A DNA stretch of 64,000 nucleotides from contig JAIQFX010000051.1 of NCBI GenBank assembly GCA_020073005.1, positions 732 through 64,731 on the forward strand. The letters are read 5' to 3'. This DNA comes from Terriglobia bacterium. GTDB lineage: Bacteria; Acidobacteriota; Vicinamibacteria; Vicinamibacterales; CAVVIG01. This document shows positions 2,606 to 60,851 of this stretch, piece after piece. The translations under genes and the position numbers were made by a program. The notes beneath the pieces are model-generated. The model saw nothing but the letters and a program-made list of their open reading frames with translations, did not search any database and was not told the origin of the DNA. The number at the start of each line of letters is the position of its first letter. Position 1 is the first letter of the stretch.

Positions 2606-4807
2606 GTGGGAAAAGAATCCTCCTCTCGTTTCAGTGTCCTCCGTGGTGTCGCCTTTCTTCTCGTCGCAGCTCTCGTAACGACGGTCGCAGTCTTCGTTTT
2701 CCGGAGCCGCGGCGTGCAAGCCGACCTTCGGCCGATCCCCAATCAAAACGTCCTGCTCATCACCATCGACACGCTTCGCGCCGACGCGCTCGGCAGCTAC
2801 GGCGGACAGGCGTCGACGCCCGCGCTCGATCGTCTGGCCGCCGGCGGCGTGCGGTTCGATTTCGCGCACGCGCACGCCGTCCTGACGCTGCCTTCGCATA
2901 CGAGCATCCTCACCGGCCGGTACCCGTTCCAGCACGGCGTGCGCGACAACAGCGGCTACCGCCTCGCGCCGGACGCGCGCACGGCGGCGACGATCCTGAA
3001 GCGCGCCGGCTACGCGACGGCGGCGTTCGTCGCCGCGTTCCCGCTCCACTCGCGCTTCGGGTTGAACCAAGGCTTCGACGTGTACGACGACCGCTTCGGC
3101 GAGACGCGCGCCCCGACCGAGTTCGTCATGCCCGAGCGCCCGGCGACGACGGTCGTCGCGCTCGCGCGCGAGTGGCTCGCCGCGCGGCACGATCGTGCGT
3201 TCACCTGGGTCCACGTCTTCGAGCCGCACGCGCCGTACCGCCCGCCGCCGCCCTACGACGCGCAGTACGCCGCGCGCCCGTACTACGGCGAGGTCGCGGC
3301 GGCCGACGCGGCGCTGGCGCCGCTGCTCGACGATGTCCGCCGGTCGGCGCAGCCGACAGTGGTCATCGTCACGGGCGATCACGGCGAGGCGCTCGGCGAT
3401 CACGGCGAGGACACGCACGGCATCTTCGCGTACGAGTCGACGCTCAGGATTCCGCTGATCATCGCGGAGCTCGGCGGGACAGGTCCGGCTGAAGCCGGAC
3501 GCCACGATAACAGTCGGGTCCGGCTTCAGCCGGACGACGGCGAAGTCTCGAGCGTCGCCGCGCGTCACGTCGACATCCTGCCGACGATCCTCGACGCGGT
3601 CGGCCAGGCGATTCCGTCCGATCTCCCGGGCCGCTCGCTGCTCTCCGCCGCCGAGCGCCGCTCGGCGGCGGCGCCGCGCACGTCGTACTTCGAGGCGATG
3701 TCCGGCATGCTGAACCGCGGCTGGGCGCCGCTCACGGGCGTGCTCGCCGATCGCGACAAGTACATCGACGTGCCGATCCCCGAGCGGTACGAGCTCGCGA
3801 GCGATCCCGCTGAAGCCTCGAACCTCGCGGGCCGCGCGCCGGAGCGCGATCGCACGCTCGCCGCGAGCCTTCGCGCGTTCCAATCGGAGCTGCCGGGCCA
3901 GCGGCGTCCGGAAGATCCGGACGCCGCGGCGCGGCTGCGCGCGCTGGGGTACGTGAGCGGCGACGCGCCGATCAAGCCGCGCTACACCGACGCGGACGAC
4001 CCGAAGACGCTCGTCGGCCTCGACCAGGAAATCCACCGCGGCGTCGACCTGTTCGTCGCGAAACGCTTCGCCGACGCCGTGCAGGTGTACGAGGGCGTCA
4101 TCGGCCGCAGGCCGGACATGGCCATCGCGTACCGCCATCTCGCGTTCGTGCGGTGGGAGTCGGGCAACGTCGCGGCGGCGATCGCCGTGCTCGAGCGGGC
4201 GCGCCAAGCGGGCGTCGCGCACGGCGGCATCACGTCGCAGCTGGGCGCGTATCTCGCGGAAGCCGGCCGCGCCTCCGACGCCGTCCGCCTGCTGCAGCCC
4301 GTGGCCAGCGCCGCGGCGCCCGACATCGACGCCCTCAACGCGCTCGGCATCGCCTACGCGCGGAGCGGACGGGCCGGCGAGGCGCGCGCCGTGTTCGAGC
4401 GGATGCTCGCGCTGAATGCGGAAAGCGCGATGGCGATGGAGAATCTCGGCACGCTGGATCTGGAGCGCAACGATCTGCACAGCGCCGGCAGACACTTCGC
4501 TGACGCCGTCCGCGTCGATCCGTTTTCGTCACAGGCCCAGGCCGGCATGGGCGTCGTCTCGCTGAAGACCGGCGACCGCCGATCGGCGATCGCGGCGTGG
4601 ACGAAGGCCGTCGAGCTCGACGCCACCAACTACGACGCGATGTACAACCTCGCCATGGCGCTCCTGGGCGACAAGCAGGCGGCGGCCGCGCGTCCCTATC
4701 TCGAACGATTTCTCCGCTCGGCGCCCGCCGCGTTTTACGAAAAAGACCTGCGGGAAGTCGCGGCGCTGCTCCAGCGCCTGCCTCAGGACGCCCGGGAAAA
4801 ACGCTAA
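2606..4807 (+). CDS. Sulfatase-like/TPR fusion protein, paralog 2 of 4
   Basis: 733-aa ORF starting with GTG at 2606 (exact start uncertain). Anchor FLLVAALVTTVAVFVF. Motifs LLITIDTLRADALGSYGG, LTLPSHTSILTG and VTGDHGEALGDHGEDTHG. Linker ARLRALGYVSG...DDPKT is followed by TPR-like repeats. It carries the in-frame palindromic insert at 3484-3535. Confidence 0.85.
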   Translation: MGKESSSRFSVLRGVAFLLVAALVTTVAVFVFRSRGVQADLRPIPNQNVLLITIDTLRADALGSYGGQASTPALDRLAAGGVRFDFAHAHAVLTLPSHTSILTGRYPFQHGVRDNSGYRLAPDARTAATILKRAGYATAAFVAAFPLHSRFGLNQGFDVYDDRFGETRAPTEFVMPERPATTVVALAREWLAARHDRAFTWVHVFEPHAPYRPPPPYDAQYAARPYYGEVAAADAALAPLLDDVRRSAQPTVVIVTGDHGEALGDHGEDTHGIFAYESTLRIPLIIAELGGTGPAEAGRHDNSRVRLQPDDGEVSSVAARHVDILPTILDAVGQAIPSDLPGRSLLSAAERRSAAAPRTSYFEAMSGMLNRGWAPLTGVLADRDKYIDVPIPERYELASDPAEASNLAGRAPERDRTLAASLRAFQSELPGQRRPEDPDAAARLRALGYVSGDAPIKPRYTDADDPKTLVGLDQEIHRGVDLFVAKRFADAVQVYEGVIGRRPDMAIAYRHLAFVRWESGNVAAAIAVLERARQAGVAHGGITSQLGAYLAEAGRASDAVRLLQPVASAAAPDIDALNALGIAYARSGRAGEARAVFERMLALNAESAMAMENLGTLDLERNDLHSAGRHFADAVRVDPFSSQAQAGMGVVSLKTGDRRSAIAAWTKAVELDATNYDAMYNLAMALLGDKQAAAARPYLERFLRSAPAAFYEKDLREVAALLQRLPQDAREKR
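3484..3535. repeat. Palindromic GTCCGGCTKMAGCCGGAC element, double-arm copy, inside the paralog 2 CDS
   Basis: gtccggctgaagccggacgccac (3484-3506) is the reverse complement of the 23-mer at 38202-38224 and 62582-62604. The second arm gtccggcttcagccggac lies at 3519-3535. It is translated as ...PAEAGRHDNSRVRLQPD... Confidence 0.85.
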
Positions 4808-4820
4808 GATCTGATCCTCC

Positions 4821-7277
4821 ATGACCGCAGGGCTCGTCCTCGCGCTGGCGGCAGCCGTGGCCGTCCAGGATCAGGCGGCGCCGGTCTTCAAGGCCGGCGT
4901 CGAGCTCGTCCGGCTGGACGTGCGCGTGACGGACGCGCTCGGCCGGCCGGTGCGCGATCTGCGGCCGGACGAGCTCGAGGTGATCGAAGACGGCGAGCGC
5001 CGGCCGATCGTCTTCTTCCAGCACATCGAAGAGCCGGCCGAGTCGTTCGCGGACGTCGCGCGGCACACGGTCGCGGGCGAAGTCTCGACCAATCAGGGGG
5101 CGGCGCGCGGGCATCTGTACGTGCTCGTGTTCGACCAGGAGCACATCACGCCGGGCCGCGAACAGCGCGTGCGCCAGGCGGCGCGGCGCTTCGTGCAGAC
5201 GCGGCTGCGCCCGGGCGATCGCGTCGCGCTCTACGCGCTGCCGGGACCGGGACCGCAGATCCCGTTCACGGCGGACGCGCGGCGGATCGCCGCCGAGCTG
5301 TCGAGCGCGCGCGGGATCGCGGAGCCGCAGGCGTTCGGCGCGCTCGGCAGCATGTCGCTGCCGGAGGCGTACCAGATCGTGCTCGGGAACAACGAGGTGT
5401 ATCAGCGCGTGGCGGAACGGATCCAGGGGCAGGGGACGAGCGACGCCGCGCGCCGCGCCGACGCATCGCTCGTCGGCAGAAGCGACACGCCGCTGACCAA
5501 TCCGATCAAGGAAGACGCGGAACGGATCGCCAATATCGCCGACGGCCAGACGCGGCGCGTGCTCGCGGCGCTGACCGACCTGCTGCGCGCGATGCGCGGC
5601 ATCGAGGGACGCAAGTCGGTGCTGTTCATGTCCGAGGGCTTCTACGGCGACCGCCTGTCGCGGGAGATCGAGCAGGTCGCGGCGGCGGCCGCGGAATCGT
5701 ACAGCGTCATTCACGCGTTCGATCTCAACCGCCGCGAGCCCGACATCACGCTCGACGAGCCGTCCGGCGCCGACCAGGCGAACGCGATCCACGACACGCT
5801 GAGTCCGCTCGGCTCGCTGGCCGCCGAGACGGGCGGCTCGCTCGTCATCGACGCCAGCATGCGCGCCGGCGAAGCCTTCGACGCGATGGCCGATCAGTCG
5901 CAGGACTACTACCTCGTGGGCTTCACGCCGCGCGCGGAGGCGCTGAAGGATCGCGGCGCGTACCGGCGCGTGGCCGTGCGCGTCCGCCGCGGCGGGGCGC
6001 AGGTCAGCACGCGCACCGGGTTCGCGCTGAATGAAACCGCGGCGCGCCTGGATCGGCGGCAGGCGATCGATCGCGCCATGACGTCGCCGTTCCCGCTCCA
6101 GGGCCTGCCGGTGCAGTACACGACCTACGTGCTGCGCGGCAGCGCGGCGGGCCTGCAGCGCGTGATTCTCAGTCTGGCCGCGGAGCTGCCGCTCGCCTCG
6201 CGCGATGGCGCGCCAACCGGCGTCGCCGACGCCGCGGACGTGGCCTTTGTCGTGCGCGCGGCCGTTGACGGCCGCGTGGCCGCCAGCGGTCACGACGCGA
6301 TCGCCCTGCCCGAACGGCGGGCGCCGGCCAGCACGACGGGGACCGGCACGTTCCGCGCGCAGTTCGAGCTGCCGCCCGGCGACTATCTGATGCGCGCGAT
6401 CGTGCGCGAGCCGGGCGGGCTCGTCGGCAGCGCCGACCGCCGCTTCACGGTGCGCGCGCTGAACGGACCGACGCTCGAAAGCGGCGACCTCGTCCTGAGC
6501 CCGACGCGCGGCGAGCTGCCCGTGCGGCCGACGGCGTACATCGGCGACGGCCTGAGCGGCGTGCTGGAGCTCTACGCGCGGACCATTGATCAATTGCGCG
6601 ACGCGCGCGTCGTCGTCGATCTCATTCCGGTCGGCGAGGACGCGGCGATCGTCTCCGGCTCGGCCGATCTGCAGCCGATCCGCGCGATCGCGGGGGGCGC
6701 CGCGCGCGAAGCTCGCGTGGCGCTGCCGCTTCCGTCGGTCGCGCCGGGAACGTACGTCGCCCGGGCGCGCGTGTTGTCGGGGTTGGACACCGTGTCGCAG
6801 GTCGTTCGCGACATCGAGATTCGGCAAGGCCAGCGTCCGGCGTCTGTCGATGAAGATCCGCCGGCGGCGTTCGATCCGCAGGCCGTGGTGACCGGCGCGG
6901 TGGCGCGTGACTACGCGGCCGCGGCGACGACGGGCGCGGAGGGCCGGCGCGGACTCGAGCGCCTCGGCGCGCGCGACTTCCCGGCGGCGATTACAGCGTT
7001 TCAGGCGGCGCTGGCTGCGGACGAGAACAACGGCGCCGCGGCGTTTCTCCTGGGCTGGGCGTTTCACGGCGCCGGCGACGATCGACAGGCGATCAGCGCG
7101 TGGCGTCGCGCCGCCTTCGTCGATCCCACGCTCGTCTCCGCGCACCTCGCGCTGGCCGACACCTACCTCCGCCTCGCGCAGCCCGCGCTCGCCGTCCAGG
7201 CGCTGCGCGCGGGTCTCGTCGCGCTGCCGCAGTCGGTCGAGCTTCTCGATCGATTGGGTCGGATCGAACGACGATGA
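4821..7277 (+). CDS. VWA-type protein of the 'VWFA-related acidobacterial domain' kind with a C-terminal TPR-like tail
   Basis: 818-aa ORF with a signal-like N-terminus. Lead-in FKAGVELVRLDVRVTDALGRPVRDLRPDELEVIEDGERRPI, then a VWA-like region ending YYLVGFTP...YRRVAVRVRRGGAQVSTRTGF. The tail is TPR-like. The stop overlaps the next start (ATGA at 7274-7277). Confidence 0.75.
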   Translation: MTAGLVLALAAAVAVQDQAAPVFKAGVELVRLDVRVTDALGRPVRDLRPDELEVIEDGERRPIVFFQHIEEPAESFADVARHTVAGEVSTNQGAARGHLYVLVFDQEHITPGREQRVRQAARRFVQTRLRPGDRVALYALPGPGPQIPFTADARRIAAELSSARGIAEPQAFGALGSMSLPEAYQIVLGNNEVYQRVAERIQGQGTSDAARRADASLVGRSDTPLTNPIKEDAERIANIADGQTRRVLAALTDLLRAMRGIEGRKSVLFMSEGFYGDRLSREIEQVAAAAAESYSVIHAFDLNRREPDITLDEPSGADQANAIHDTLSPLGSLAAETGGSLVIDASMRAGEAFDAMADQSQDYYLVGFTPRAEALKDRGAYRRVAVRVRRGGAQVSTRTGFALNETAARLDRRQAIDRAMTSPFPLQGLPVQYTTYVLRGSAAGLQRVILSLAAELPLASRDGAPTGVADAADVAFVVRAAVDGRVAASGHDAIALPERRAPASTTGTGTFRAQFELPPGDYLMRAIVREPGGLVGSADRRFTVRALNGPTLESGDLVLSPTRGELPVRPTAYIGDGLSGVLELYARTIDQLRDARVVVDLIPVGEDAAIVSGSADLQPIRAIAGGAAREARVALPLPSVAPGTYVARARVLSGLDTVSQVVRDIEIRQGQRPASVDEDPPAAFDPQAVVTGAVARDYAAAATTGAEGRRGLERLGARDFPAAITAFQAALAADENNGAAAFLLGWAFHGAGDDRQAISAWRRAAFVDPTLVSAHLALADTYLRLAQPALAVQALRAGLVALPQSVELLDRLGRIERR

Positions 7278-9204
7278 AAACGAAGAAAGGGACCTTTCTC
7301 TCCGTGTCCTCCGTGTCCTCTGTGGTGATTTCTTTCTTGGTCGGAGCGCTCGCTTTAGCGCAGTCGCCGCCGCCAAACGTCCTCCTCATCACCATCGACA
7401 CGGTGCGGGCCGATCATCTCGGCGCGTACGGTTACACGAAGGGCGCAACACCGGCGATCGATAGGCTCGCGCGCGAGGGCGTCCGCTTCGCCGATGCCAC
7501 GTCGCAGGCGCCGTTGACCGGACCGGCGCACGCCGCGATCCTCACCGGGCAGTATCCGGCGCGGCTCGGCGTCCGCGACAACGCCAGCACGCCGATTCCC
7601 GCCGGCACGTCAACGCTCGCGACGATGTTCAAGGGGCGCGGGTACAGGACGGGCGGCTTCGTCGGCGCGTTCATCCTGGGCCCGGAGTACGGCTTCGCGC
7701 AGGGCTTCGACACGTTCGACGCGACGTTCGCGCGATTCAACGCCGGGATGAAGCTGCAGGCGCAGCGCCGCGGCGGCGAGGTGACCGACGCCGCGCTCAA
7801 GTGGATACGGGGAGACAGCCACCAGTTCTTCGCGTGGGTGCACCTCTACGACGCGCACGCGCCGTACGACGCGCCCGCGCCCTTCCGCGCGCGCTTCGCG
7901 GCGGCGCCGTACGACGGCGAGGTCGCGTACGTCGACAGCTGCATCGCGAAGATCGTCGCGGCCCTCGAACAATCGGGCCAGCTCGAGCGCACGCTGATCG
8001 CCGTCGTCGCGGATCACGGCGAGGGACTGGGCGATCACGGCGAAGCCGAGCACGGTCTGTTCCTCTACGAATCCGTGCTGCACGTGCCGTGGATCATGCG
8101 GCTGCCCGGCCACGACGCCGCGGGATCGGTCGTCAAGACGCAGGTGCGCGCGATCGACGTGCTGCCCACGCTGGCGGCAATCGCGGGCGTGACGCCGCCG
8201 AAGACGGACGGCTCTATCCGAAGTGGCACTTCGGCTGGAGCGAGCTGAAGTCGGTCCGCGTCGGCGACTGGAAGTACATCGACGCGCCGAAGCCGGAGCT
8301 GTACGACATGCGCGCGGACGCCGGTGAAGCGCGCAACGCCATCGACGCGCGCGGCCCGCTCGCCGGCGGTCTGTCCGCGGAGCTCGGGAAAATCCAGACG
8401 GGATTCGGCGCCGCCGCCACCGTCACGGATGCGCCGCAGCCCGATCCGGAAACGCTGGCGCGGCTGCGCAGCCTCGGCTACGTCGGCATCGCGTCGCCGT
8501 CGCCGGGCGTGCGCGGTCCCGATCCGAAGGACATGGTCCCGACGCTCGAGACCTTCAAGACCGGAATCAGCCGCGCGATGGACGCGCTCGGGCGCGGCAA
8601 CGCGGACGCCGCGATCGCGCAGCTGAAGACGCTCGTCGCGATGAACGATCGTTCGTACGAGCTGCACCTGTTTCTCGGCGACGCGTACGCGGCCAAGCGC
8701 CAGTACGACACGGCGCTCGGCGAATACGCCGCCGCGCGGATGCTGAACGCGCACAGCAGCGCGCCGGCCATCTCCGAGGCGCGCGTCTATCTGGGGCAGG
8801 GCAATCTCGCGCGCGCGCTGCAGCAGATCGACGCGGCCGAGCGCCTGGATCCGACGAGCAGCGAGGTGCCGCTCGTCCGCGGCGAGATTCTGGAGAAGCA
8901 GGGCCGCGGTCCGGACGCGCTCGCGCAGTACGAGATTGCCGTCCGCACGAACGGCTCGGACGCGCAGGCCCGCGTCAGCCTCGCCAGCCTGGCGCTGCAG
9001 CTGCGTCAGTACGATCTGGCCCGGCCGCAATTCGAGAAGCTCGTGCAGATGGGCTATCGTCCGTCGCGGATGCACTTCGGGCTCGCGCAGATCGCCGAGG
9101 CGCAGGGCGACGTGAAGAAAGCGATCGCCGAGTATCGTCTGGCCCTGAAGCTCGAACCGTCGCTCAAGGAAGCCAGCGCGGCGTTGTCACGGCTCAGTCA
9201 ATAG
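7274..9204 (+). pseudogene. Sulfatase-like/TPR fusion, paralog 3 of 4, broken by an internal deletion plus frameshift near 8210
   Basis: Frame A (7274-8248) reads MKTKKG...LLITIDTVRADHLGAYGY...LTGPAHAAILTG...[17 protein letters not shown]...GVTPPKTDG and then hits nonsense and a stop. The frame offset by 2 nt (-1 frame) resumes at about 8212 with LYPKWHFGWSEL...ARLRSLGYVG...TPR and runs to 9204. About 22 residues conserved in the paralogs (RSL...YSE) are missing at the junction. Confidence 0.8.
7299..7327. repeat. Single arm of the CTCCGTGTC-type repeat, encoding part of the signal peptide (LSVSSVSSVV)
   Basis: cctccgtgtcctctgtggt at 7308-7326 is the exact reverse complement of accacagaggacacggagg at 48651-48669. 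Confidence 0.8.
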
Positions 9205-9987: not shown

Positions 9988-12054
9988 ATGAACGCGAAGA
10001 TTGCCACGAGCGTCGCGCTTGTTGCCGCCGTCCTGGGCGGAGCGAGCTCCGCCCCTACGGCGCAATTGCCGACCTTCCGCGCGGCCACGGACGTCGTCGA
10101 AGTGGACGTCGTCGTGGAGGACAGGCAGGGTCACTTCGTCACCGACTTATCCCCCGCTGACTTCGAGGTCAGCGAAGAAGGCGCGCCGCAGCGCGTGAGT
10201 CTCTTCTATCTGGTCGAGTCCGGCGTCGCGCGCGCGCCGGCGCTTCCCGTCCAGAACGAATCCGCCGCTGCCACCGGTGCGGCTCCACGGACACCGCGAT
10301 TCTTCATCGTGTACTTCGACGATGCGCACCTCACGCCGGCGGGATTCAAGCGGGTGCAGGCGGCGGCGCTGACGCTCTTCTCCAGGGAGTTCAAGCCGGG
10401 TGATGTCGGCGGCGTCATCTACAACGGCGCCATGGCCAACGGCCGCCTGACGTCGGATCGGGAAGAACTCGTCAAGGCGATCAAGAACGCGAAGCCGAAT
10501 TCCGCGAAGAACTCGCGCCTCATGGAAGAGCGCTCGTTCCCGCGTATGGGCGAAATCGAGGCCGTGCGAATTCGCGTGAACAACGACGAAAACATCAGGG
10601 CGGAGGTCATCCGCCGGGCAATCGAGGAAGAGCCGAACACCCGAGTGGAGATTATCGAAGCGATGGTCGACGTCAAGACGCAGAACCTCAGCTCGACGGC
10701 GCAGGCAGAGAGCAATCAGACGCTGCAGGGACTGCTCGCCGTCATGAATGGTCTCGCCAGGATCGAGGGACGAAAGACGATCCTTCTGCTGTCTGAGGGC
10801 TTCATCGCGGAAGAATCCTGGCCTCTCGTGCGAACTGCTGTCGACAGCGCTTCGCGCGCGAACGCCAGACTCTACACGCTGGACGCGCGCGGTCTGGAAC
10901 GCGGACTGCGCTCCATCTACGATGTCGCGCCAGGCGGCTCTGATTCCGGCCTGCGCACACTCGAGCAGCAGGACGTCGGCGCGGACGCCATCAACAGCCT
11001 TGCGGTGGACACCGGCGGCTTCGTCGTCCGCAACACCAACATCTTCGACGCGGCGGTCGGGCGCATCGCCGCCGACGCCGGCACGTACTACGTGCTTGGC
11101 TATCGCCCCGACAAGGCCGCGGACGGCAAGTACCGCCGTCTCTCGGTGAAGGTCACGCGGCCGGGACTCGTCGTCCGCGCGCGCAAGGGCTACGTCGCCA
11201 CGCCACGCGCCGCAGCCGCGCCAGCGGTTACGGCGACCGGCACTCCGGCTGCGCCGCGTAGTCAACCCGTGCCGGCTCCGACGCCGGATGATGTTCGCGA
11301 ACCGTCACCGGTCGAACCTCCCACGGCGCCTGCCGGCGGCGGTGATGCGACGCTTGTTCCGGCCACGTCCGCCGGCAACGGCGTGCGCCTGCGACCGAAC
11401 GTCGAGGTGCATCTGAACGACCTCGCCGCGAACGAAGGTCCCGACAAGGACGCGACCACGGGCTGGGAAGCCTATCAGCGCGGCGATCTCGCGACGGCGC
11501 GGACGTTTCTCGCCACGGCCGCGGCCCGCCGGACCGCGCAGCTGTGGGTGCACTACGCGCTCGGGCAGTCCGAGTACGCGCTGCGCGAATACCCCGGCGC
11601 GGTGGCGGCGTGGGAACGGGTCCACGGCGGCGCGCCTGAGTTCGAGCCGGTGTACTTCGATCTCGTGGACGGCTACCTTCAGCTGAAGGAGTACGACAAG
11701 GCCGTCCGTCTTCTGCGGACGGCGACGGAGCGATGGCCGCGCGATCCGGAAGTCTTCAACGCGCTCGGCGTCGTCCAGACGGCCCGCGGATCGCTCGACG
11801 ATGCGGTCAAGTCGTTCGGACAGGCGATCGCCGCGGTGCCTGGCGACGCGATCGGCTACTTCAACCTCGGCAAGGCGATGGAACTGAGGTACTACCGCTC
11901 GCGGCACTACGTGCAGCAGCTCCGGACGTGGGTCGCGAACGAGAGCGACCGCGCCGCCGCGGTCGAACACTACGAGCACTACCTCACGCTCGGCGGGCCG
12001 TACGCTGACGCCGCGCGCGAGGGCCTGACGCGGCTGAACTGGACACCGAAGTAG
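9988..12054 (+). CDS. VWA-type (TIGR03436-like) protein with a C-terminal TPR domain
   Basis: 688-aa ORF with a signal peptide ending ...APTAQ. Lead-in FRAATDVVEVDVVVEDRQGHFVTDLSPADFEVSEEGAPQRV, then the VWA-like body ...TGGFVVRNTN...YYVLGYRP..YRRLSVKVTRPGLVVRARKGY. A Pro-rich linker and TPR-like repeats follow. Confidence 0.8.
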   Translation: MNAKIATSVALVAAVLGGASSAPTAQLPTFRAATDVVEVDVVVEDRQGHFVTDLSPADFEVSEEGAPQRVSLFYLVESGVARAPALPVQNESAAATGAAPRTPRFFIVYFDDAHLTPAGFKRVQAAALTLFSREFKPGDVGGVIYNGAMANGRLTSDREELVKAIKNAKPNSAKNSRLMEERSFPRMGEIEAVRIRVNNDENIRAEVIRRAIEEEPNTRVEIIEAMVDVKTQNLSSTAQAESNQTLQGLLAVMNGLARIEGRKTILLLSEGFIAEESWPLVRTAVDSASRANARLYTLDARGLERGLRSIYDVAPGGSDSGLRTLEQQDVGADAINSLAVDTGGFVVRNTNIFDAAVGRIAADAGTYYVLGYRPDKAADGKYRRLSVKVTRPGLVVRARKGYVATPRAAAAPAVTATGTPAAPRSQPVPAPTPDDVREPSPVEPPTAPAGGGDATLVPATSAGNGVRLRPNVEVHLNDLAANEGPDKDATTGWEAYQRGDLATARTFLATAAARRTAQLWVHYALGQSEYALREYPGAVAAWERVHGGAPEFEPVYFDLVDGYLQLKEYDKAVRLLRTATERWPRDPEVFNALGVVQTARGSLDDAVKSFGQAIAAVPGDAIGYFNLGKAMELRYYRSRHYVQQLRTWVANESDRAAAVEHYEHYLTLGGPYADAAREGLTRLNWTPK

Positions 12055-12107: not shown

Positions 12108-12130
12108 GTCCGGCTAAAGCCGGACGCCAC
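12108..12130. repeat. Intergenic copy of the GTGGCGTCCGGCTTCAGCCGGAC palindromic element (1 mismatch)
   Basis: gtccggctaaagccggacgccac is the reverse complement of the 23-mer family with a single loop change. Confidence 0.8.
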
Positions 12131-12136
12131 GGAACA

Positions 12137-15085
12137 TCAGAAGAAGAAGCGCACGCCGAGCCGCGCAATGCGCGGCTGCATGATCTCCTGCACGGTGTTG
12201 AACGCCGTCCCCGTGCGCGCGTCGTACTGGTTGCCCAGGACGGTCGCGTTGTTGGCGATGTTGAAGATGTCGAAGTCCAGCGCGAGATTCGTCTTCTGGA
12301 ACTTGAACATCTTCTCGACGCGCGCATCGAGCGAGGTCACCGCGTCGAGACGAAACTGATCGACGCTGGTCGTCAGCAGCACGCTCTTGCTCGAGACGAC
12401 CGGGTCGCCCGGGTTCACCTTGCTGCGGAAGTACGGCTCGCCGTACCCCTGGCGGAACAGGAGGTTGGCGCCGACGTTGATCCCCCACGGTCCCTCATAG
12501 AGCCCGTTGGCGGTGAACTGGTACTTGGGCGGCAACAGGTAGATGCTGCTCTTGCCGCTGCCGGAGGACTTCACGACGACCGGCCCGCCGTCGATGTTGG
12601 GTCCGGCGCTCTGGAAGGACTGGTACTGTCCCGAGGCGTTGGGCGTCGGCGTCAGGTCGAGCCGTGCGTCCGCCGCGCTGAAGTATTCGTTCCAGCTCGT
12701 CGTCGCAAACCCCGCGCGCGCCATCCAGTGATTCGACATGCGCTTGGTCGCGGTCGCTTCGAATCCGAGGTAGCGCTGGTGGTAGTCCGGCCGGTTCACG
12801 GCCGTGTAGCCGGGCAGCGCCGACGTCGCTCTGTAGATCGGAACGTTCGGCGCGCCGGTCACGGGAACGTTGAGCGCCGTGCCGTTCTGCACGTAGCTGG
12901 CCGGCGTCACGCCGTTGCGCGGGTTCCACAGAAAGTTGTTCATGTAGCGGTACGTCATCGTCGCGCTGACGCCGAAGTTCGCCATCAGCTCGTGGTCGAC
13001 GCCGCCCATGATTTCCTGCGTGCGCGGCGCTGTGATGTCGCTGATCTTGTTGTTCGACGTGAACACGCCCGGGTGCGACAGATCGACGACGTTGGACCCC
13101 TGCACGCCCTGGCTGAACAGGACTTCGTTGAGATCGGCGTAGCCGTTGCACCCGTTCGATTTTGCCTGGCCCTGCGCGAGAGTACACGGCGCGCCGGTCG
13201 ACGTCCGATCGACGGCGTTGTAGTACACGTAGGTGTACGGCTGGATGCCGGAGACGAATCCGGCGGCGTTACCCGGCAGCTGCGACGCGAACATCGCGTA
13301 GCTCACCCGGGCGATCGTCTTTCGCGAATCGTCGAGCGCATACGTGATACCGACGCGCGGCGTCACGTTGTTGAAGTCGTAGGCGTTGTTGACCGCCGTC
13401 GCCGTCGCCGCCGGCAGCAGCGGGAACCCGGCCACCGCGGGCGCGGTGGACGGCAGGATGGATGACGTCTGGTGGTCGAACCGCACGCCGGCCATCAGGG
13501 TCAACCGGTTCATCGAGATCGTGTCCGTGACGAAGCCCTGCGTGTACTTGCCTTCGCTGCTGACCACGTAGTCCTGCTGCGCCTGGGCGATCAGGTCCGG
13601 GTAGCCGTTCCAGAACGTCATGATCCGGTTGGGGCCCGTCACCGTCGACAGCGAATCGACCGGCGTCTTGCGGTACGAGAAGCCAAACTTCACTTCGTGC
13701 TTGCCCTTGAAGTAGCTCGCGTCTCCGCCCGCGAAGTACTGCGGGCGCGTCGTGCTGTAGAAGTAGTACGAGTTGTGCCAGACACCGCTATCGTCCTTGT
13801 AGAACGGCGTGTCCACACCGCCCCGCGGCGACAACTGGAACCCGCCGCTGATGTACGCGTATCGCGCCGACGCGAACAGGTTCTGCCCCACCGTGAAGTT
13901 GCCCTCGCCCTTGTAGTACTTGGTTGGGCCGGTCTGATCCCACGTCGTTTCGTCCGGGTGGGTCGCGCTCGCGCCGCGCCCGTTCTTCACCTTGTTGCCC
14001 TCGAAGAACGTGAAGTTGCCGCGGACGCTGGGATTCACCTGCGCGTCGCCTTTGAACGCGTAGTTCTTCAGGACCGTTTCATCCAGCGTTCCAATCAGCG
14101 TCCGGATGCGCGGGTTGGTCTCACCGATGGTGCCCCACACCCAGACCTTGTCTTTCAGGAGCGGGCCGCCGAGGTCGAAACCGTAGTCCTTGTATATATC
14201 CGTCCGGTTTCCGCAGTGCTGCGTGTACCCGCTGTCAATGCAGGGCTGATAGGCGCCGCCGATCGTCTTGGCGAGCGTCGGATCCATGTTGTTGCCCTGC
14301 AGGTTCTCGTTCTCGAAGTAGTAGCGGGCATCGCCGTGGATCTGGTTGCTGCCCTTCTTGAGAATCAGGTTCAGCTGCACGCCGGGCGTCGGGTTCTGCG
14401 CGTCCGCGCCGCCGGTCGTGATGGCCATTTCCTGGAACATGTCGAAGTCGTAGTAGGTCGGCGTCGACCCGGTCGCGCCCATGTCGGTGACCGGCACGCC
14501 GTCGATGTTCCACGTGTTGTCGGTGCCGAACGAGCCCTTGCCGATGTAGTTCGACTGCTGGCCCGACTCCGAGCCGCCGACGTTGACACGGTCGACGTAG
14601 ATCGTCGGCACCGTCTGCATGACGACCCACGGATCGCGCGCGCTCGGGATGTTCTGCAGTTCCTCGAGCGTCACGTTCGTCGTTGTCGTCTCGCGCCGGA
14701 TATCGATGATGGGCGTCGCCGCCGTCACGTTCACGGTTTCCGCCGTGCCCGCGACGCCGAGTTTGATGGCGACGGGCGTCGCAGAGCCGCTGGCCACCGC
14801 GACTTCAGGGTTGTTGTAGGGATTGAATCCCGAGAGACTGGCTTTGATCGCGTAAGTCCCGACCGGCAGATTCAGGAAATGCACCTGGCCCTGCGCGTCG
14901 GACACCTGCGTCTGATTGACGGGTCCGGTGAGGTCCACCGAGACGCCCGGCAGCCGGCCACCGGTCGTGTCTTCGATCGTGACGTCCACGCGCCCGGTGA
15001 AGATCTGCGCCGAAGCGGTCGACACCACGCCGAGCACCATCACGAGTGCCGCGAACCACGCGACGAGTTTACGGTTCCGTTTCAT
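12137..15085 (-). CDS. TonB-dependent-receptor-like outer-membrane barrel with an N-terminal carboxypeptidase-regulatory-like domain
   Basis: 982 aa from the ATG at 15085, preceded by GGAGGAG. Signal peptide MKRNRKLVAWFAALVMVLGVVSTASAQ. CarboxypepD_reg-like region GRVDV...GGRLPGVSVDL...AQGQVHFLNLPVGTYAI. The body is rich in Y/G/N/T beta strands and ends in a terminal ...LGVRFFF. The upstream M at 15124 was rejected. Confidence 0.8.
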   Translation of the reverse strand: MKRNRKLVAWFAALVMVLGVVSTASAQIFTGRVDVTIEDTTGGRLPGVSVDLTGPVNQTQVSDAQGQVHFLNLPVGTYAIKASLSGFNPYNNPEVAVASGSATPVAIKLGVAGTAETVNVTAATPIIDIRRETTTTNVTLEELQNIPSARDPWVVMQTVPTIYVDRVNVGGSESGQQSNYIGKGSFGTDNTWNIDGVPVTDMGATGSTPTYYDFDMFQEMAITTGGADAQNPTPGVQLNLILKKGSNQIHGDARYYFENENLQGNNMDPTLAKTIGGAYQPCIDSGYTQHCGNRTDIYKDYGFDLGGPLLKDKVWVWGTIGETNPRIRTLIGTLDETVLKNYAFKGDAQVNPSVRGNFTFFEGNKVKNGRGASATHPDETTWDQTGPTKYYKGEGNFTVGQNLFASARYAYISGGFQLSPRGGVDTPFYKDDSGVWHNSYYFYSTTRPQYFAGGDASYFKGKHEVKFGFSYRKTPVDSLSTVTGPNRIMTFWNGYPDLIAQAQQDYVVSSEGKYTQGFVTDTISMNRLTLMAGVRFDHQTSSILPSTAPAVAGFPLLPAATATAVNNAYDFNNVTPRVGITYALDDSRKTIARVSYAMFASQLPGNAAGFVSGIQPYTYVYYNAVDRTSTGAPCTLAQGQAKSNGCNGYADLNEVLFSQGVQGSNVVDLSHPGVFTSNNKISDITAPRTQEIMGGVDHELMANFGVSATMTYRYMNNFLWNPRNGVTPASYVQNGTALNVPVTGAPNVPIYRATSALPGYTAVNRPDYHQRYLGFEATATKRMSNHWMARAGFATTSWNEYFSAADARLDLTPTPNASGQYQSFQSAGPNIDGGPVVVKSSGSGKSSIYLLPPKYQFTANGLYEGPWGINVGANLLFRQGYGEPYFRSKVNPGDPVVSSKSVLLTTSVDQFRLDAVTSLDARVEKMFKFQKTNLALDFDIFNIANNATVLGNQYDARTGTAFNTVQEIMQPRIARLGVRFFF

Positions 15086-15334
15086 GTCTTCGGCTCCTCC
15101 TCTAAGAAGCTGATGACCACGCATCCTGTCGGATGCCTACGCGCGTCCTGCGTAAGACGAACGTAAATGCCGTGCGAGCAATCGGTTGACCGCTCGGCGA
15201 CCGTTCATGATACAGCGATCTGTATCGGGCGAAACATTGGCTTGCGTGATTTCGGCGACTGTCCGGCCGATGTCCGGAAATACGGTCGTCCACGGCGCAC
15301 CTGTCCGGAAACGAACACCCCTCGGGGCTCTATA

Positions 15335-16228: not shown

Positions 16229-18301
16229 ATGAAAATCAGGCTCGCCTTTGCGGTCCTCGCTCTGACGGCAGTCGCCTGGTTTGTCTGGGAGCGCAGCCGG
16301 CCGTCGGTGCGTCCGGGCGCGTGCGCAGGCTGCAACGTCCTGCTCATCACGATCGACACGCTGCGGCTCGATCGCGTCGGCGCGTTCGGCGGCCCGGCCG
16401 GTCTCACGCCGCATCTCGATCGCCTCGCGGCGGAGGGCCTGCGGCTCACGCGGACCTACAGCTCCGCGCCGCTCACGCTGCCCTCTCACACGTCGATCAT
16501 GACTGCCGTGTCGCCGCCGGTGCATGGCGTGCGGACCAACGGCCTGTTCCGCCTCGGCGCCGCGCTTCCGACGCTCGCGACCGTCCTGAAGGCAGCCGGC
16601 TATCGCACGGGCGCGTTCGTCGGCGCGTTCGTGCTGGACGCGCGGTTCGGCCTGAACCGCGGATTCGACGTGTACGACGACCGCTACGGCGAAAAACACA
16701 CGGGCGATCCGACGGAAGGCGCCGAGCGCCGCGCGGAAGAGGTGATCAAGCCGGCGGCGGCATGGATCCTGGACGGCGGCCACCCGTCTTCAGCCACCAG
16801 CCACCAGCCACCAGCCACCAATCCTTGGTTCGCGTGGGTCCACCTCTACGATCCGCACGAGCCCTACCGCGCGCCCGAGCCGTACGCCTCGCAACACGAG
16901 CCGTACGACGCCGAGGTGGCGTACGCGGACGCGATGGTCGGCCGCTTGCTCGACGACCTGCGGTCGGCCGGACAACTCGATCGAACGCTCGTCGTGGTCG
17001 CGTCGGATCACGGCGAAAGCCTCGGCGAGCACGGCGAGCGCACGCACGGCGTGTTTACCTACGACGCGACGATGCGCGTGCCGTGGATCGTGTGGGCGGG
17101 GTCGCGTCTCCCGAGCGCGTCGACCGACGCGCTCGTCCGGCTGATCGACGTCGCCCCGACGACGCTCGACCTCGTCGGCGTGGCGGCGCCGCCTTCGTTC
17201 GAGGGCCGCTCGGCGCTCCCGGAGGCGGGCTGCCGGACCTGGTTCGCGCAGACTCCACCGGCGCGCACGGCGTACATCGAAGCGATGGACGCGAACCTGA
17301 CACGGAACTGGGCGCCCCTGACGGGCATCGTGTCGGGGAGCGCGAAGCTCATCGAGCTGCCGATCCCGGAGCTCTACGATCTCTCGTCGGATCCGAAGGA
17401 AGCGACGAACCTCTTCACGCGCGACGCCGAGCGCGCGCGCACGCTGAGTGCGCTGCTTCGCGAGTCCACGTCCGCATTTCTCTCGCGCGGTTCAGCCGCC
17501 GAGAAAACCACGCTGGGCGGCGAGGCGCGCCAGCGGCTGCAGGCGCTCGGTTACGTGGCGTCGAGCGCCGAGCCCGGCAATCGCGTCTTCACGGACGCCG
17601 ACGATCCGAAGACGCTCATCGGGCCCGCCAACGATCTCCAGCGCGCGGTCATCGCGTTCAACACGGGATCGAGGGCGCCGGCGATGGACGCCGTCCGCGC
17701 GATCGTCCGGGCGCACCCGGGCTTCACGACGGCCCATGGGATGCTCGCGTCGATGCAGCGCGAGAGCGGCGACCTGCGCGGCGCGATTGCCACGCTCGAG
17801 GACGTCCTGCGCCGCGGCATCGCGGATCAGAGCGTGATGATCGTGCTCGCGGGGTATCTGCAGGAGGCGGGCGACGCCGCCAAGTCGGTCGCGCTGCTGG
17901 AGGCGGTCGTCGCCGCGCACCCGGACTACGCTGAGGCGTACAACTCGCTCGGCGTCGCGTACATGCGCCTGGGCCGCCACGATCAGGCCCGCGCGGCGCT
18001 GCGCAAGGTGCTCGACCTCGATCCGACGTCGGCGAAGGCGTACGAGAATCTGGGCGCCGATGAATTGTCCGTGGGCGATCTGGCGGCCGGCGTCGACGAT
18101 CTGAAGCGGGCGATCGATCTCGATCCGCTGCTCTACGATGCGCTGTACAACCTGGCGCTGGCGCTGCACGATCTCGGACGGCGCGATGAGGCGCGGCCGT
18201 ATCTCGAGCGCTTCGTGCGCGAGGCGCCGCAGCCGCGCTACGCGCGCGACATCGCGAAGCTGCAGAGTGTTTTTGAAAAGAGCGGGACCGGAAAAAAATA
18301 G
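16229..18301 (+). CDS. Sulfatase-like/TPR fusion protein, paralog 4 of 4
   Basis: 690-aa ORF with anchor LAFAVLALTAVAWFVW. Motifs VLLITIDTLRLDRVGAFGG, LTLPSHTSIMT and VASDHGESLGEHGERTHG. Linker [11 protein letters not shown]...DDPKT is followed by TPR repeats. It contains the heptamer run at 16791-16818. Confidence 0.85.
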   Translation: MKIRLAFAVLALTAVAWFVWERSRPSVRPGACAGCNVLLITIDTLRLDRVGAFGGPAGLTPHLDRLAAEGLRLTRTYSSAPLTLPSHTSIMTAVSPPVHGVRTNGLFRLGAALPTLATVLKAAGYRTGAFVGAFVLDARFGLNRGFDVYDDRYGEKHTGDPTEGAERRAEEVIKPAAAWILDGGHPSSATSHQPPATNPWFAWVHLYDPHEPYRAPEPYASQHEPYDAEVAYADAMVGRLLDDLRSAGQLDRTLVVVASDHGESLGEHGERTHGVFTYDATMRVPWIVWAGSRLPSASTDALVRLIDVAPTTLDLVGVAAPPSFEGRSALPEAGCRTWFAQTPPARTAYIEAMDANLTRNWAPLTGIVSGSAKLIELPIPELYDLSSDPKEATNLFTRDAERARTLSALLRESTSAFLSRGSAAEKTTLGGEARQRLQALGYVASSAEPGNRVFTDADDPKTLIGPANDLQRAVIAFNTGSRAPAMDAVRAIVRAHPGFTTAHGMLASMQRESGDLRGAIATLEDVLRRGIADQSVMIVLAGYLQEAGDAAKSVALLEAVVAAHPDYAEAYNSLGVAYMRLGRHDQARAALRKVLDLDPTSAKAYENLGADELSVGDLAAGVDDLKRAIDLDPLLYDALYNLALALHDLGRRDEARPYLERFVREAPQPRYARDIAKLQSVFEKSGTGKK
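16791..16818. repeat. Perfect tandem heptamer (CAGCCAC) x4 inside the CDS
   Basis: cagccac cagccac cagccac cagccac is translated ...SATSHQPPATN... within a roughly 12-residue stretch absent from the other three paralogs. Confidence 0.9.
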
Positions 18302-37805: not shown

Positions 37806-38861
37806 ATGCCCGTGGCCCACGAACTCCGTCTCGGGACGCGCGGCAGTCAACTCGCCTTGTGGCAGGCCAACACCGTCGCCGCGCGGATCGCCGCCGCCGG
37901 CGGCCCGCCGTGCCGCGTCACGATCATCAAGACGTCCGGCGATCGCCTGCAGGACGCGCCGCTGTCGACGGTCGGCGGAAAGCGCCTGTTCGTGAAGGAA
38001 ATCGAGGACGCGCTGCTGCGGCGCGACGTCGATCTCGCGGTCCACAGCAGCAAGGACATGCCGGCGGTGCTGCCCGGCGGCCTCGCGATTGCGGGCGTCC
38101 TGCCGCGCGAGGATCCGCTGGACGCGGTGATTCTGCCCGCGACGGTCCGCCTGAAGGCGGACCCCACGGCATCAGGGGACGTGGCGTCCCGCGCGACACA
38201 CGTGGCGTCCGGCTTCAGCCGGACCGCAACGGTGGATGATCTCGTCGCGCATCTCGGGCCGGCACCGTCGATTGGCACCGGCAGCGTGCGGCGCATCGCG
38301 CAGTTGATGCGGCTGTTTCCCGGCGCGCGGTTCGCGCCGATTCGCGGGAACCTCGACACGCGGCTGCGGAAGCTCGATCAGCCGGCAGCGGAGGCTGGTA
38401 AGCTTGACGCCATCGTGCTGGCCGCGGCCGGACTGCGACGGCTCGGATTCGGCGCCCGCATTTCGATGACGCTGCCGGCCGCCTCGTGCGTGCCGGCGCC
38501 CGGGCAGGGCATCGTCGCAATCGAGATTCGCGAGGACGACGACGTGGTGCGGCGCGCGGTGGCGGCGATCGACGATCCACAGGCGGGCGCGGCGCTCGCG
38601 GCCGAGCGCGCGCTGGTGGAAACGCTGGGCGGCGGATGTCAGACGCCGGTCGGCGCGCTGGCGTCTCCGCTTCCGGGTGAGATGCTCGAGTTGACGGCGG
38701 TCGTCGTCGCACTGGACGGCAGTCGCGCCGTCCGCGCGCAGGCGCGAGGGTCGTGGAAGGAAGCGGCCGCGCTCGGCGCGCGCGCGGGCGCGGACCTGCT
38801 GCGCGACGGCGCGGGCGAGATTCTGGCCGAAGCGCAGCGGGCATCGTCAACGAACGACTAA
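37806..38861 (+). CDS. hemC: Hydroxymethylbilane synthase (porphobilinogen deaminase) carrying an in-frame palindromic insert
   Basis: 351 aa. Motifs LRLGTRGSQLALWQA, GDRLQD, GGKRLFVKEIE, VHSSKDMP, GTGSVRR, RGNLDTRL and GGCQTPVG. It carries an extra ~30 aa at 38145-38224. Confidence 0.92.
   Translation: MPVAHELRLGTRGSQLALWQANTVAARIAAAGGPPCRVTIIKTSGDRLQDAPLSTVGGKRLFVKEIEDALLRRDVDLAVHSSKDMPAVLPGGLAIAGVLPREDPLDAVILPATVRLKADPTASGDVASRATHVASGFSRTATVDDLVAHLGPAPSIGTGSVRRIAQLMRLFPGARFAPIRGNLDTRLRKLDQPAAEAGKLDAIVLAAAGLRRLGFGARISMTLPAASCVPAPGQGIVAIEIREDDDVVRRAVAAIDDPQAGAALAAERALVETLGGGCQTPVGALASPLPGEMLELTAVVVALDGSRAVRAQARGSWKEAAALGARAGADLLRDGAGEILAEAQRASSTND
38145..38224. repeat. Double-arm palindromic element (GTCCGSCTKMAGSCGGAC family) inserted in-frame in hemC
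   Basis: The arms are gtccgcctgaaggcggac (38145-38162) and gtggcgtccggcttcagccggac (38202-38224). Translated VRLKADPTASGDVASRATHVASGFSRT. Confidence 0.85.
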
Positions 38862-53081: not shown

Positions 53082-53660
53082 TCAGGCGACCACGGGCCGC
53101 GACCCTGGCTTCACGACGGGCAGTCCCTGCGCGCACAGCGGACATTGATCGGGCTCGTGCGTCGGCAGGGCGATCTCGAGGAGCGCGGCGAACGGCACGT
53201 CGAACCGTACCGCGCCGCCGCTGCGATCGACGAGGGACGCCGCGCCGACGACCTGTCCGCCGGCCGCCCTCGCCACCTGCATCGTCTCGCGCGTCGATCC
53301 CCCGGTCGTCAGCACGTCCTCGATCACCAGCACGCGATCCGTTTCGCTGATGACGAACCCGCGGCGCAGCGCGAGCGCGCCGTCCTGCCGCTCCGCGAAG
53401 ATGGCGCGCACGCCGAGCGCGCGGCCCACTTCGTGGCCGATGACGACGCCGCCGAGCGCCGGCGAGAGCACGAGGCTCGGACGCAGGTCGCGCGTGCGAT
53501 CCGCGATCGCGCGGCCGAGCGCTTCGGCGTGCTTCGGGTGCTGCAGCACCAGCGCGCACTGCAGGTAGCCCGGACTGTGGAGCCCGGACGACAAACGGAA
53601 ATGACCTTCGAGCAGCGCGCCGGAGCGCCGGAAGAGATCGAGAAGCTCGTCGCGGGTCAT
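53082..53660 (-). CDS. pyrE: Orotate phosphoribosyltransferase
   Basis: About 192 aa from the ATG at 53660 (a TTG lies at 53663). Motifs FRLSSGLHSPGYL and the PRPP loop VLVIEDVLTTGGS. The start shares one nucleotide with the upstream stop (TGATG). Confidence 0.9.
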   Translation of the reverse strand: MTRDELLDLFRRSGALLEGHFRLSSGLHSPGYLQCALVLQHPKHAEALGRAIADRTRDLRPSLVLSPALGGVVIGHEVGRALGVRAIFAERQDGALALRRGFVISETDRVLVIEDVLTTGGSTRETMQVARAAGGQVVGAASLVDRSGGAVRFDVPFAALLEIALPTHEPDQCPLCAQGLPVVKPGSRPVVA

Positions 53661-56101: not shown

Positions 56102-56216
56102 GGATTCCTCAAAAAAACGGGGCCTAAGTATACAATTGCCTGAACCATATTTCCCCGCCGGACGTCTACTGATCAGACCAGCGACAGATTTTCCTTTTCT
56201 TGATGGAGCGTCAGAA

Positions 56217-59976: not shown

Positions 59977-60851
59977 AGAGCGGCGGCGTCCGCTTTCAGC
60001 CTTCGCACTTCAGCCTTCAGACTCGAGACGTTTCTATGCCTCATCCCCAAGTGGCAGAGCGAGAAGTCGTACTTCACGGGATCGTCCGGGTCGAGGCGGC
60101 GCAGTGACGCCGTGATGTCGCGCGCCATCTTCCAGCCCGGGCTCGTGTACGTCGTCAGCCGCAGGCAGCGCCCGACGCGAATGACGTGCGTGTCGAGCGG
60201 CACGATCAGCTTCGACGGCGACACGCGCCGCCAGACGCCGAGATCGAGCGCGTCGCGCCGCACCATCCAGCGCAGAAACAGATTCAGCCGCTTGCATCCG
60301 CTGCCCTTCGACGGCTGCGCAAAAAAGTACGGCACGCCGGGCGCGCGGTTCGAGAAGCGCGGCACGCGTCCGTAGGCGGACCGGAGATCGAGCGCGAGCG
60401 CGCGCGTCGAGAAACTCTCGATCGCGTTCTCGATGTCCTCCGCGGACGGATCGTAGCCTTCGAGAAAGAAGCCTTCGACCGATCCCGAGCGGTCGAGCAT
60501 CTGCTTCAGCTGCCAGACGAGCGCGACGAGATCGGGCCCGCGCGTCCAGCGATGCACGATGGACGCGAACGGCTTCGCGTCGCGCCGTGGATCGAATCGA
60601 CGGACGTACGCGGCCGGCTCCGGTCCCATGACGGCGACCACGCGCTCGATCGACTGCAGCACGCTCATCACGCGGCCGAACGCCAGCGCGCCGGCCACGA
60701 ACCCGACGATCTCGCGGTCGTCGTTTCGTTCGAATCGCCGGACGATCTGAATCGGATCGATCGCCGAATCGGGGTAGTTGAACGACCGGTACAGGCCGTC
60801 CAGCGCCGGTTTCAACTCTTCAATCCGCAATCCGCACTCCTCAATCCGCAA
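59967..60851 (-). CDS. TIGR02757/DUF2400-like protein (function unknown)
   Basis: 294-aa ORF. The family call is from memory of the conserved pattern (...DPIQIVRRF...DREIVGFVAGALAFGRV..., ...RLNLFLRWMVRRD..DLGVW...). The first ~11 codons (MRIEECGLRIEE) come from a heptamer repeat, so the true start is uncertain. Confidence 0.5.
   Translation of the reverse strand: MRIEECGLRIEELKPALDGLYRSFNYPDSAIDPIQIVRRFERNDDREIVGFVAGALAFGRVMSVLQSIERVVAVMGPEPAAYVRRFDPRRDAKPFASIVHRWTRGPDLVALVWQLKQMLDRSGSVEGFFLEGYDPSAEDIENAIESFSTRALALDLRSAYGRVPRFSNRAPGVPYFFAQPSKGSGCKRLNLFLRWMVRRDALDLGVWRRVSPSKLIVPLDTHVIRVGRCLRLTTYTSPGWKMARDITASLRRLDPDDPVKYDFSLCHLGMRHRNVSSLKAEVRRLKADAAALQT
60816..60850. repeat. Single array of GCGGAKT-family heptamers (complement strand shown) at the 5' end of the minus-strand gene
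   Basis: ctcttca atccgca atccgca ctcctca atccgca. The stretch 60821-60849 matches 52531-52559 with 1 mismatch. Confidence 0.85.

Follow-up and report, generated by a model that had tools for sequence, protein, structure and literature searches.

The 64,000-nt window analyzed here (positions 732 to 64,731 of contig JAIQFX010000051.1, assembly GCA_020073005.1, forward strand) comes from a soil or groundwater acidobacterium and carries, inside an open reading frame (ORF) at 2606-4807 that encodes a protein of the Sulfatase family, a palindromic element at 3483-3535. This element is a tag-to-tag doublet (REPIN) of a dispersed family of repetitive extragenic palindromic (REP) sequences, termed REP-A; its spacer is short, and the tag of its second unit is degenerate. 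Very probably, the REPIN inserted in frame in the common ancestor of two congeneric species and was tolerated in a variable loop of the protein, with the gene kept functional. The analyzed assembly (G000; a draft of 5.86 Mb in 179 contigs, 67% GC) was compared with metagenome-assembled genomes of Vicinamibacterales (Acidobacteriota), including a congener from the same genus (G001) and a third species of that genus (G002). The loop homologous to the insertion site was read at 57 loci, a gene tree was built from 65 homologs with the loop masked, and copies of REP-A were counted by exact pattern across 40 related genera, with the reversed pattern as a control.

A REP Doublet in a Coding Region

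The components of the element and of the extra coding segment that it forms are as follows (window coordinates).

3482-3535, + strand: extra in-frame segment, GPAEAGRHDNSRVRLQPD, residues 293-310; 54 nt, 18 codons
3483-3500, + strand: REP-A hairpin 1, GTCCGGCTGAAGCCGGAC; GTCCGGC-TGAA-GCCGGAC, 7-bp stem, 4-nt loop
3501-3506, + strand: tag of unit 1, GCCACG; its reverse complement, CGTGGC, is a GT[AG]G-type REP head
3507-3517, + strand: short spacer and degenerate tag of unit 2 (GTCGG), ATAACAGTCGG; 18 nt shorter than in the G001 ortholog
3518-3535, + strand: REP-A hairpin 2, GTCCGGCTTCAGCCGGAC; exact reverse complement of hairpin 1

The initial annotation, made from the letters of the stretch, had described a 52-bp palindromic element at 3484-3535; the palindrome is real, but it starts one base earlier, at 3483, and measures 53 bp. 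Its two copies are mutually complementary as described, the hairpins at 3483-3500 and 3518-3535 matching exactly, and with their inner flanks the units form 23-nt arms that are 91% complementary. Folded as RNA, the doublet gives one long hairpin of -50.5 kcal/mol (z = -6.5), a stability reached by 0 of 200 shuffled sequences. The reading frame runs unbroken through the 18 codons of 3482-3535 within ORF 2606-4807, and the peptide that had been quoted for this gene is correct.

Sites of the GTCCGGCTGAAGCCGGAC type with at most two mismatches occur seven times in the window, against 0.00 expected from 100 shuffles, with hairpins starting at 3483, 3518, 12108, 38145, 38207, 55124, and 62587. Further copies had been placed at 12108, 38145, 38202, 55119, and 62582; the first two positions stand, and the other three lie 5 bases below the hairpin starts because a 5-nt tag before the hairpin had been counted in. 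Over the whole 5.86-Mb genome there are 291 hairpin matches, 235 of which have a tag on the side set by the orientation of the loop, RCCACG after the TGAA-loop form and CGTGGY before the TTCA-loop form. This side-specific tag therefore defines the REP-A unit as a REP of ~24 nt headed by GTGG, a form of the GT[AG]G-type tag that marks the REP superfamily. Under a strict definition (at least 6 of 7 stem pairs, and a tag on the loop-matching side) 228 of the 291 remain, and they make up 176 elements, among them 127 single units and 38 tag-to-tag, REPIN-like doublets. The family divides into two sub-families according to a complementary pair in the stem (GGCT/AGCC, 108 exact copies; GCCT/AGGC, 51), and doublets often combine one unit from each. 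REP-A thus has the short, GC-rich, dispersed palindrome (an 18-nt hairpin plus a 5-6-nt tag), the GT[AG]G-type tag, and the inverted doublets of the REP superfamily. Single units showed no orientation bias relative to local GC skew (38/27 vs. 33/29, P = 0.59).

Paralogs and Orthologs with and without the Element

Comparison with homologs identifies the element as an addition to the gene. The rows below give the host gene and two of its paralogs in the window.

2606-4807, + strand: host gene, a 733-aa membrane-anchored Sulfatase-family protein with C-terminal TPR repeats and an alkaline-phosphatase fold
386-2593, + strand: upstream tandem paralog, 37% identity, no insert in the homologous loop; tandem order kept in relatives
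16229-18301, + strand: further paralog, 47% identity, no insert

The distance from the PLII motif to the HVD motif is 34 residues in the host protein, 16-17 in the three in-window paralogs, and 21 in a closer paralog on another contig (C60), in good agreement with the earlier estimate that the other three paralogs are shorter by about 17-18 residues. The C60 paralog, which is 66% identical to the host, has no palindrome and a loop 13 residues shorter. The fourth family member in the window, at ~6911-9204, is split over two overlapping frames, the N-terminal one ending near 8248 and the other forming ORF 7801-9204; a frameshift, a pseudogene, or an assembly error are possible causes.

In the loop-masked tree the host gene groups with its G001 counterpart, followed by L036, then L007/L046, L038, and L043. 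At L046 (genome G024), L038, and L043, the upstream paralog adjoins the ortholog, as in G000; the downstream gene is also the same at L046, and at L038 and L043 another sulfatase-family paralog comes next. These syntenic orthologs provide the "empty sites" that the initial annotation had proposed to look for: REPs are absent from them, and their loops fall short by 9-13 residues and bear no sequence relation to the insert. G024 has a single REP-A copy in its whole genome. Had homologs without the palindrome kept a homologous peptide of equal length, an insertion would have been hard to maintain; instead, they are 9-18 residues shorter.

In G001, the fully syntenic ortholog (88-89% identity) is likewise occupied at this site, by a canonical REPIN that is read in the frame used in G000, spans 24 codons, and is arranged as GTCCGCCTGAAGGCGGAC-GCCACG-23 nt-CGTGGT-GTCCGGCTTCAGCCAGAC. 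Because this same-genus ortholog shares it, the insertion is not private to G000, and the agreement of independent assemblies excludes an assembly artifact. The search of G002 gave no ortholog of the host gene; its best match (L008/L047) is an ortholog of the C60 paralog, with 79% identity, and for that reason gives no date for the insertion. Presence and absence at orthologous sites, as expected of a mobile element, is seen among the host-gene orthologs and again at the penicillin-amidase gene of the window, whose REP-A copy (62587) is missing from the G002 ortholog.

The Host Gene and Its Product

Several measures bear on whether the insertion inactivated the gene. Between G000 and the G001 ortholog the ratio of nonsynonymous to synonymous substitution rates (dN/dS) is 0.146 (0.126 upstream of the insert and 0.143 downstream) at a synonymous divergence (dS) of 0.45. 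The codon-usage score is strongly positive in the frame of ORF 2606-4807 only, and all family-invariant residues are retained. Judged by these sequence measures, the host gene is intact and under purifying selection and appears to have stayed functional.

Pfam places the Sulfatase domain (PF00884) at residues 47-333 (E = 9.7e-37), and Foldseek aligned the N-terminal 480 residues with S1 sulfatases and phosphonate monoester hydrolases as its top matches (E ~1e-19 to 1e-17). S1 formylglycine sulfatases bear the signature Cys/Ser-x-Pro-x-Arg, the source of their formylglycine nucleophile. In the host protein this position reads T94-L-P-S-H98, with T94 and H98 invariant in 38 homologs, and Thr is probably the nucleophile. 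With Thr-x-Pro-x-His in place of Cys/Ser-x-Pro-x-Arg, the protein is therefore described here as a sulfatase-family enzyme of putative activity, not as a demonstrated sulfatase. The products of 2606-4807, 386-2593, and 16229-18301 all share Thr-x-Pro-x-His, an N-terminal membrane helix, and C-terminal TPR repeats, and on this pattern none of the three is probably a true sulfatase.

An AlphaFold model of the host protein, built on the 38 homologs, has a mean predicted local distance difference test score (pLDDT) of 87.7 and a predicted template modeling score (pTM) of 0.82. Values of pLDDT below 50 are confined to residues 1-4, 166-174, 293-309, and 731-733. The third of these segments coincides with the REPIN-encoded residues and lies between two confident strands, 284-289 and 313-320. 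Structure prediction, the second check proposed by the initial annotation, hence puts the insert in a disordered loop between strands, and the pLDDT profile together with the secondary structure suggests a surface loop.

Recurrent Use of the Same Loop

Among the 57 loci, the homologous loop spans 23 to 54 residues. Within the C60-type clade, the loop of two members has a single, oppositely oriented REP-A unit (L015 in G021, encoding VRLQPD and with a GTAG tag; L024 in G019, encoding VRLKPD). Other hairpins occupy the same loop at L045, L103, L068, and L041, and short tandem repeats at L016, L044, and L088. The loop thus gained REP-A at least two times, probably three, and other repeats several more times.

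A comparable pattern surrounds hemC, the porphobilinogen deaminase gene of the window, in which a REP-A doublet lies at 38145-38224. The corresponding loop in G002, G021, and G019 contains another palindrome, formed by inverted heptamer arrays of the type (GGGCTSA)n ... (TSAGCCC)n or GGCTGAT/ATCAGCC, and G024 has only a short remnant. The contents of the hemC loop differ among relatives, and therefore different hairpin elements occupy one loop in different genera. No match to the hemC ortholog was found in G001.

One might suppose from these two cases that permissive loops of Vicinamibacterales proteins are recurrent landing pads where hairpin elements replace one another, that a resident hairpin might attract the next, and that the arms are held by nucleic-acid selection or concerted evolution and not by selection on the peptide. 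The basis for this idea is the sulfatase-family loop, which REP-A occupies in three lineages, other palindromes occupy in four, and tandem repeats fill in another three, together with the hemC loop, with a REPIN in G000 and inverted heptamer arrays in relatives. We consider it an unlikely generalization at present.

RAYT Transposases in the Host Lineage

REPs are linked to REP-associated tyrosine transposases (RAYTs), and genes of this type flanked by REP-A are found in related genomes. In G021 (L125), G047 (L132), and G003 (L133), REP-A copies in inverted orientation bracket the RAYT genes, and those of G044 (L127) and G008 (L138) have it on a single side; GTAG variants of the tag are among the REP-A copies that flank RAYT genes in relatives. 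These genera belong to the same taxonomic family as G000, and their REP-A-flanked RAYTs carry the HUH motif, H-hydrophobic-H (MPDHVHLL). In the census, exact-pattern copies of REP-A numbered 0-391 across the 40 genera, with 161 in G000 and 39 in G001, against 0-1 for the reversed-pattern control. The flanking of RAYT genes and the census together make REP-A a RAYT-associated family in this lineage.

A profile search detected four PF01797 (Y1_Tnp) genes in G000. One RAYT-type gene (contig C114, 62379-62991) is flanked by a second REP family, GTAG + CGCGACCCTTTCAGGGTCGCG, with 11 copies genome-wide; two copies of CGCGACCCTTTCAGGGTCGCG at one end of the gene face a single inverted copy at the opposite end, which is the classic arrangement. 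At C124, 15271-15316, a long perfect palindrome of GGGTCGGACC words with a 20-bp stem follows another Y1_Tnp gene; this palindrome may be a terminal-inverted-repeat (TIR)-type end rather than a REP.

Proposed History and Alternative Explanations

We propose that two REP units of ~24 nt, facing each other tag to tag, entered the sulfatase-family gene before the split of G000 and G001 and landed in a hypervariable loop between two beta-strands. REP-A is of the kind copied by RAYT (Y1/HUH) transposases, and RAYT transposition would be the route of entry. Three factors may have allowed the element to persist: counted with one flanking base, its length is divisible by three; stop codons are absent from five of the six REP reading frames; and the loop would tolerate added disordered residues. 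Purifying selection on the gene continued, with the element translated as 18 residues in G000 or 24 in G001, and the shorter form would stem from a later deletion in G000 that removed 18 nt of the spacer and some of the second tag. For the protein, the insert would be neutral. In its essentials this history retains the reading of the initial annotation, a doublet of a dispersed palindromic repeat inserted in frame relative to homologs, which the paralogs, the orthologs, and the copy census all support.

Several observations weigh against this history. In the 179-contig draft no RAYT flanked by REP-A (GTCCGGCTKMAGCCGGAC) was found, with REP-A within 3 kb of 0 of the 4 PF01797 genes, and tblastn searches with REP-A-type RAYTs returned no closer copy or fragment from the draft. 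The Y1_Tnp genes of G000 are unflanked or flanked by other palindromes, and two RAYT-like G000 proteins are just 37-45% identical to the REP-A-flanked RAYTs of relatives. The own RAYT of REP-A is missing or unassembled in G000, so the REP-A copies of this genome may be relics or may be moved in trans. Among the empty-site homologs the loop varies too much for the exact insertion boundaries, or any target duplication, to be read. Finally, of the 42 nt in the two hairpins and the left tag, 3 distinguish G000 from G001, against 29% of four-fold sites (121/417; P = 5e-4). A passive insert under simple neutral decay would have diverged faster than these arms, which calls for either constraint or homogenization.

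Two of the three arm differences form a complementary stem swap, which keeps the pairing and changes Ala-Glu-Ala to Pro-Glu-Gly; at none of the eight third-codon positions in the left unit do G000 and G001 differ. Because the swap alters amino acids and keeps pairing, the conservation acts on DNA or RNA, not on the peptide; it reflects either a structural constraint on the stem or homogenization against genomic copies. The first of these options raises the alternative that selection on the nucleic acid itself maintains the hairpin, which might cause ribosomes to pause between folding units through its structure in the mRNA, determine RNase action or stability, or serve as a protein-bound DNA structure. 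The low divergence of the arms and tag, the compensatory G/C swap, the unchanged third-codon positions, and the very high stability of the doublet all fit such selection. The two stem variants, however, are those of the two abundant sub-families (108 and 51 exact copies), and conversion or copy replacement explains the swap with no need for selection at this locus; moreover, the G000 spacer has lost 18 nt and half a tag. Since syntenic orthologs do without any hairpin and the repeat occurs in dozens of unrelated genes, a locus-specific function is rated unlikely, and selection on the nucleic acid is, taken as a whole, an improbable account of the element.

A similarly improbable course of events would be that G000 and G001 gained their REPINs independently at the same hot spot. 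The left units belong to different sub-families in the two genomes and the spacers differ by 18 nt, and the loop is evidently a recurrent target, given the two oppositely oriented single REP-A units in the paralogous clade and the other palindromes and tandem repeats in further relatives. Against these points, the two genomes share the reading frame and orientation of the element, its 5' junction (GGG-ACR-G|GTCCG), its right hairpin, and its left tag plus the next 2 nt, and a single insertion with a subsequent deletion and stem swap is a more parsimonious history than two insertions. That the host gene is a pseudogene, inactivated by the insertion and open by chance, is very hard to sustain: long spurious ORFs are common in this 67% GC genome, but dN/dS is 0.13-0.15 on either side of the insert over a dS of 0.45, the coding score is positive in the host frame only, the invariant residues are kept, and the fold is confident. 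Hardly any credence is left for a local product (chance, local duplication-inversion, or an ancestral loop) instead of mobile DNA, which has nothing in its favor beyond the variable length of the loop in the family and is countered by the hundreds of same-tag copies here and in relatives against 0-1 for the control, by the REP-A copies flanking RAYT genes in relatives, and by the empty sites in orthologs.

REP-A inside Genes Genome-Wide

Elsewhere in the window, REP-A is found at four further locations, three of them within genes.

12108-12125: intergenic REP-A copy between convergent ORFs 9988-12054 (+) and 12137-15124 (-)
38145-38224, + strand: REP-A doublet in frame in hemC (porphobilinogen deaminase, 37806-38858, +), in the cofactor-binding domain
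55124-55141, - strand: single REP-A in frame (VRLKPD) in an S9/DPP-IV-type peptidase gene (53660-56443, -)
62587-62604, + strand: single REP-A in frame (VRLQPD) in the penicillin-amidase gene (60778-63342)

The G002 contig stops short of the site in the peptidase gene. To place all elements relative to genes, we scored coding potential by a codon-usage log-likelihood trained on long ORFs with high GC content at third codon positions and low GC content at second positions. An element was called intragenic if an uninterrupted frame ran through it, with at least 150 nt of ORF on each side and a coding score of >12 bits per 240 nt on both sides. By this strict test, 52 of the 176 REP-A elements (30%) lie in frame inside genes. 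Random sites pass the same test at 65%, and therefore REP-A is about two-fold depleted from genes, yet far from extragenic; the extragenic location that otherwise characterizes REPs does not hold for this family. Five of the six REP-A frames are open and all five are used, yielding the peptides VRLKPDAT, GPAEAGRH, VRLQPD, ASGFSRT, and RPASAGP, and the sixth, which has a TGA, is unused among the intragenic elements.

By sequence, the host genes include those for SMC (two elements), Lhr-type, UvrD-like, and DinG-like helicases, a 2-oxoacid dehydrogenase E1, and an ABC exporter, as well as HemC, the S9 peptidase, and the penicillin amidase. Pfam bears out all five hosts that were scanned (HemC, S9 peptidase, penicillin amidase, SMC, and ABC exporter), and the REP-A elements sit within the domain envelopes of these proteins. 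The SMC gene contains two separate in-frame doublets (contig C56, 3695-3745 and 4923-4986), one of them in the hinge domain, and the UvrD-like helicase gene (C135) also has two in-frame doublets. DNA-repair and chromosome-maintenance genes figure prominently in the list of hosts, a tendency also noted by Di Nocera et al. for other phyla.

Other repeats were observed in and around the penicillin-amidase gene. A second, unrelated palindrome, ACCACGGAGGACACGGAGG ... CCTCCGTGTCCTCAGTGTCCCCGGTGGT, lies in frame within ORF 60778-63342 at 61536-61617, and sequences matching it are found at many sites on either strand of G001 and G002. An AT-rich inverted heptamer array (GAAAACT/GAAAAGT ... complement) occupies the intergenic segment 57855-57960, and G001 and G002 likewise contain many matches to it. 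A tandem run of AATCCGC-like heptamers (60816-60855), located either at the start of the penicillin-amidase ORF or immediately before it, has near-identical short matches across both genomes.

Comparison with Known Systems

The closest published parallel is the survey of GTAG/CGTC-tagged REPs by Di Nocera, De Gregorio, and Rocco (2013, BMC Genomics 14:522, PMC3733652), in which sub-families have alternative complementary stem residues and head-to-head dimers predominate. In that survey, REPs and their dimers also occur wholly within ORFs of known proteins, to which they add ~6-30 residues (20-30 in the case of dimers), many of the hosts function in DNA repair and replication, and the tag is GTGG in most GTAG-20 units of Opitutus terrae (PMC3733652). 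REP-A resembles these REPs in its GC-rich hairpin with a GT[AG]G-type tag, its complementary sub-families, its dimers, its copies within ORFs, and its GTGG tag, and also in its repair and replication hosts (here Lhr, UvrD-like, and DinG-like helicases and SMC). The likeness concerns tag and organization. The surveyed families are mostly from Proteobacteria, and Acidobacteria are named there only for TIR-flanked tyrosine transposases (PMC3733652). REP-A differs from them in its phylum, in the ~30% of elements that are intragenic by a strict test, and in an orthologous copy that two species have both retained since they diverged.

REPINs and RAYTs were defined by Bertels and Rainey in 2011 (PMC3116915), and the REPIN-RAYT system is characterized by hundreds of copies, a single-copy, REP-flanked Y1/HUH transposase, and long vertical inheritance (PMC3116915; bioRxiv 10.1101/2021.07.10.451892). 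REP-A shares with this system the inverted pair of REPs that forms one long hairpin, the hundreds of copies, the long vertical inheritance, and, in relatives, a REP-flanked RAYT. It departs from it in that classical REPINs are essentially extragenic and in that the G000 assembly has no REP-A-flanked RAYT.

Di Nocera et al. relate intragenic REPs to the Rickettsia palindromic elements (RPEs), which lie in frame in functional, often essential genes and whose translation gives the proteins additional segments at the surface (cited in PMC3733652 and PMC1779305). The element at 3483-3535 resembles an RPE in behavior only, that is, in its in-frame insertion in a functional gene, and is not counted here as a member of an RPE family. 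Most RPEs are longer (about 100-150 bp) and come from obligate intracellular Alphaproteobacteria, and they are not known to have a RAYT partner.

The kind of event described here, an intragenic REP, is thus already published for other bacteria and reveals no new mechanism. The present case adds orthologous retention with selection statistics, syntenic empty sites, repeated use of one loop, and a missing cognate RAYT. It contributes a documented example, with a structure model, to the few lineages that routinely translate "extragenic" palindromes in functional, even essential genes. For annotation, the recurring segments VRLKPDAT, GPAEAGRH, VRLQPD, and ASGFSRT in Vicinamibacterales proteins are to be read as repeat-encoded and not as domains; for protein evolution, REPs are a source of loop insertions; and for the biology of REPINs, this gene offers arms within a coding region that are conserved well below the synonymous rate of change.

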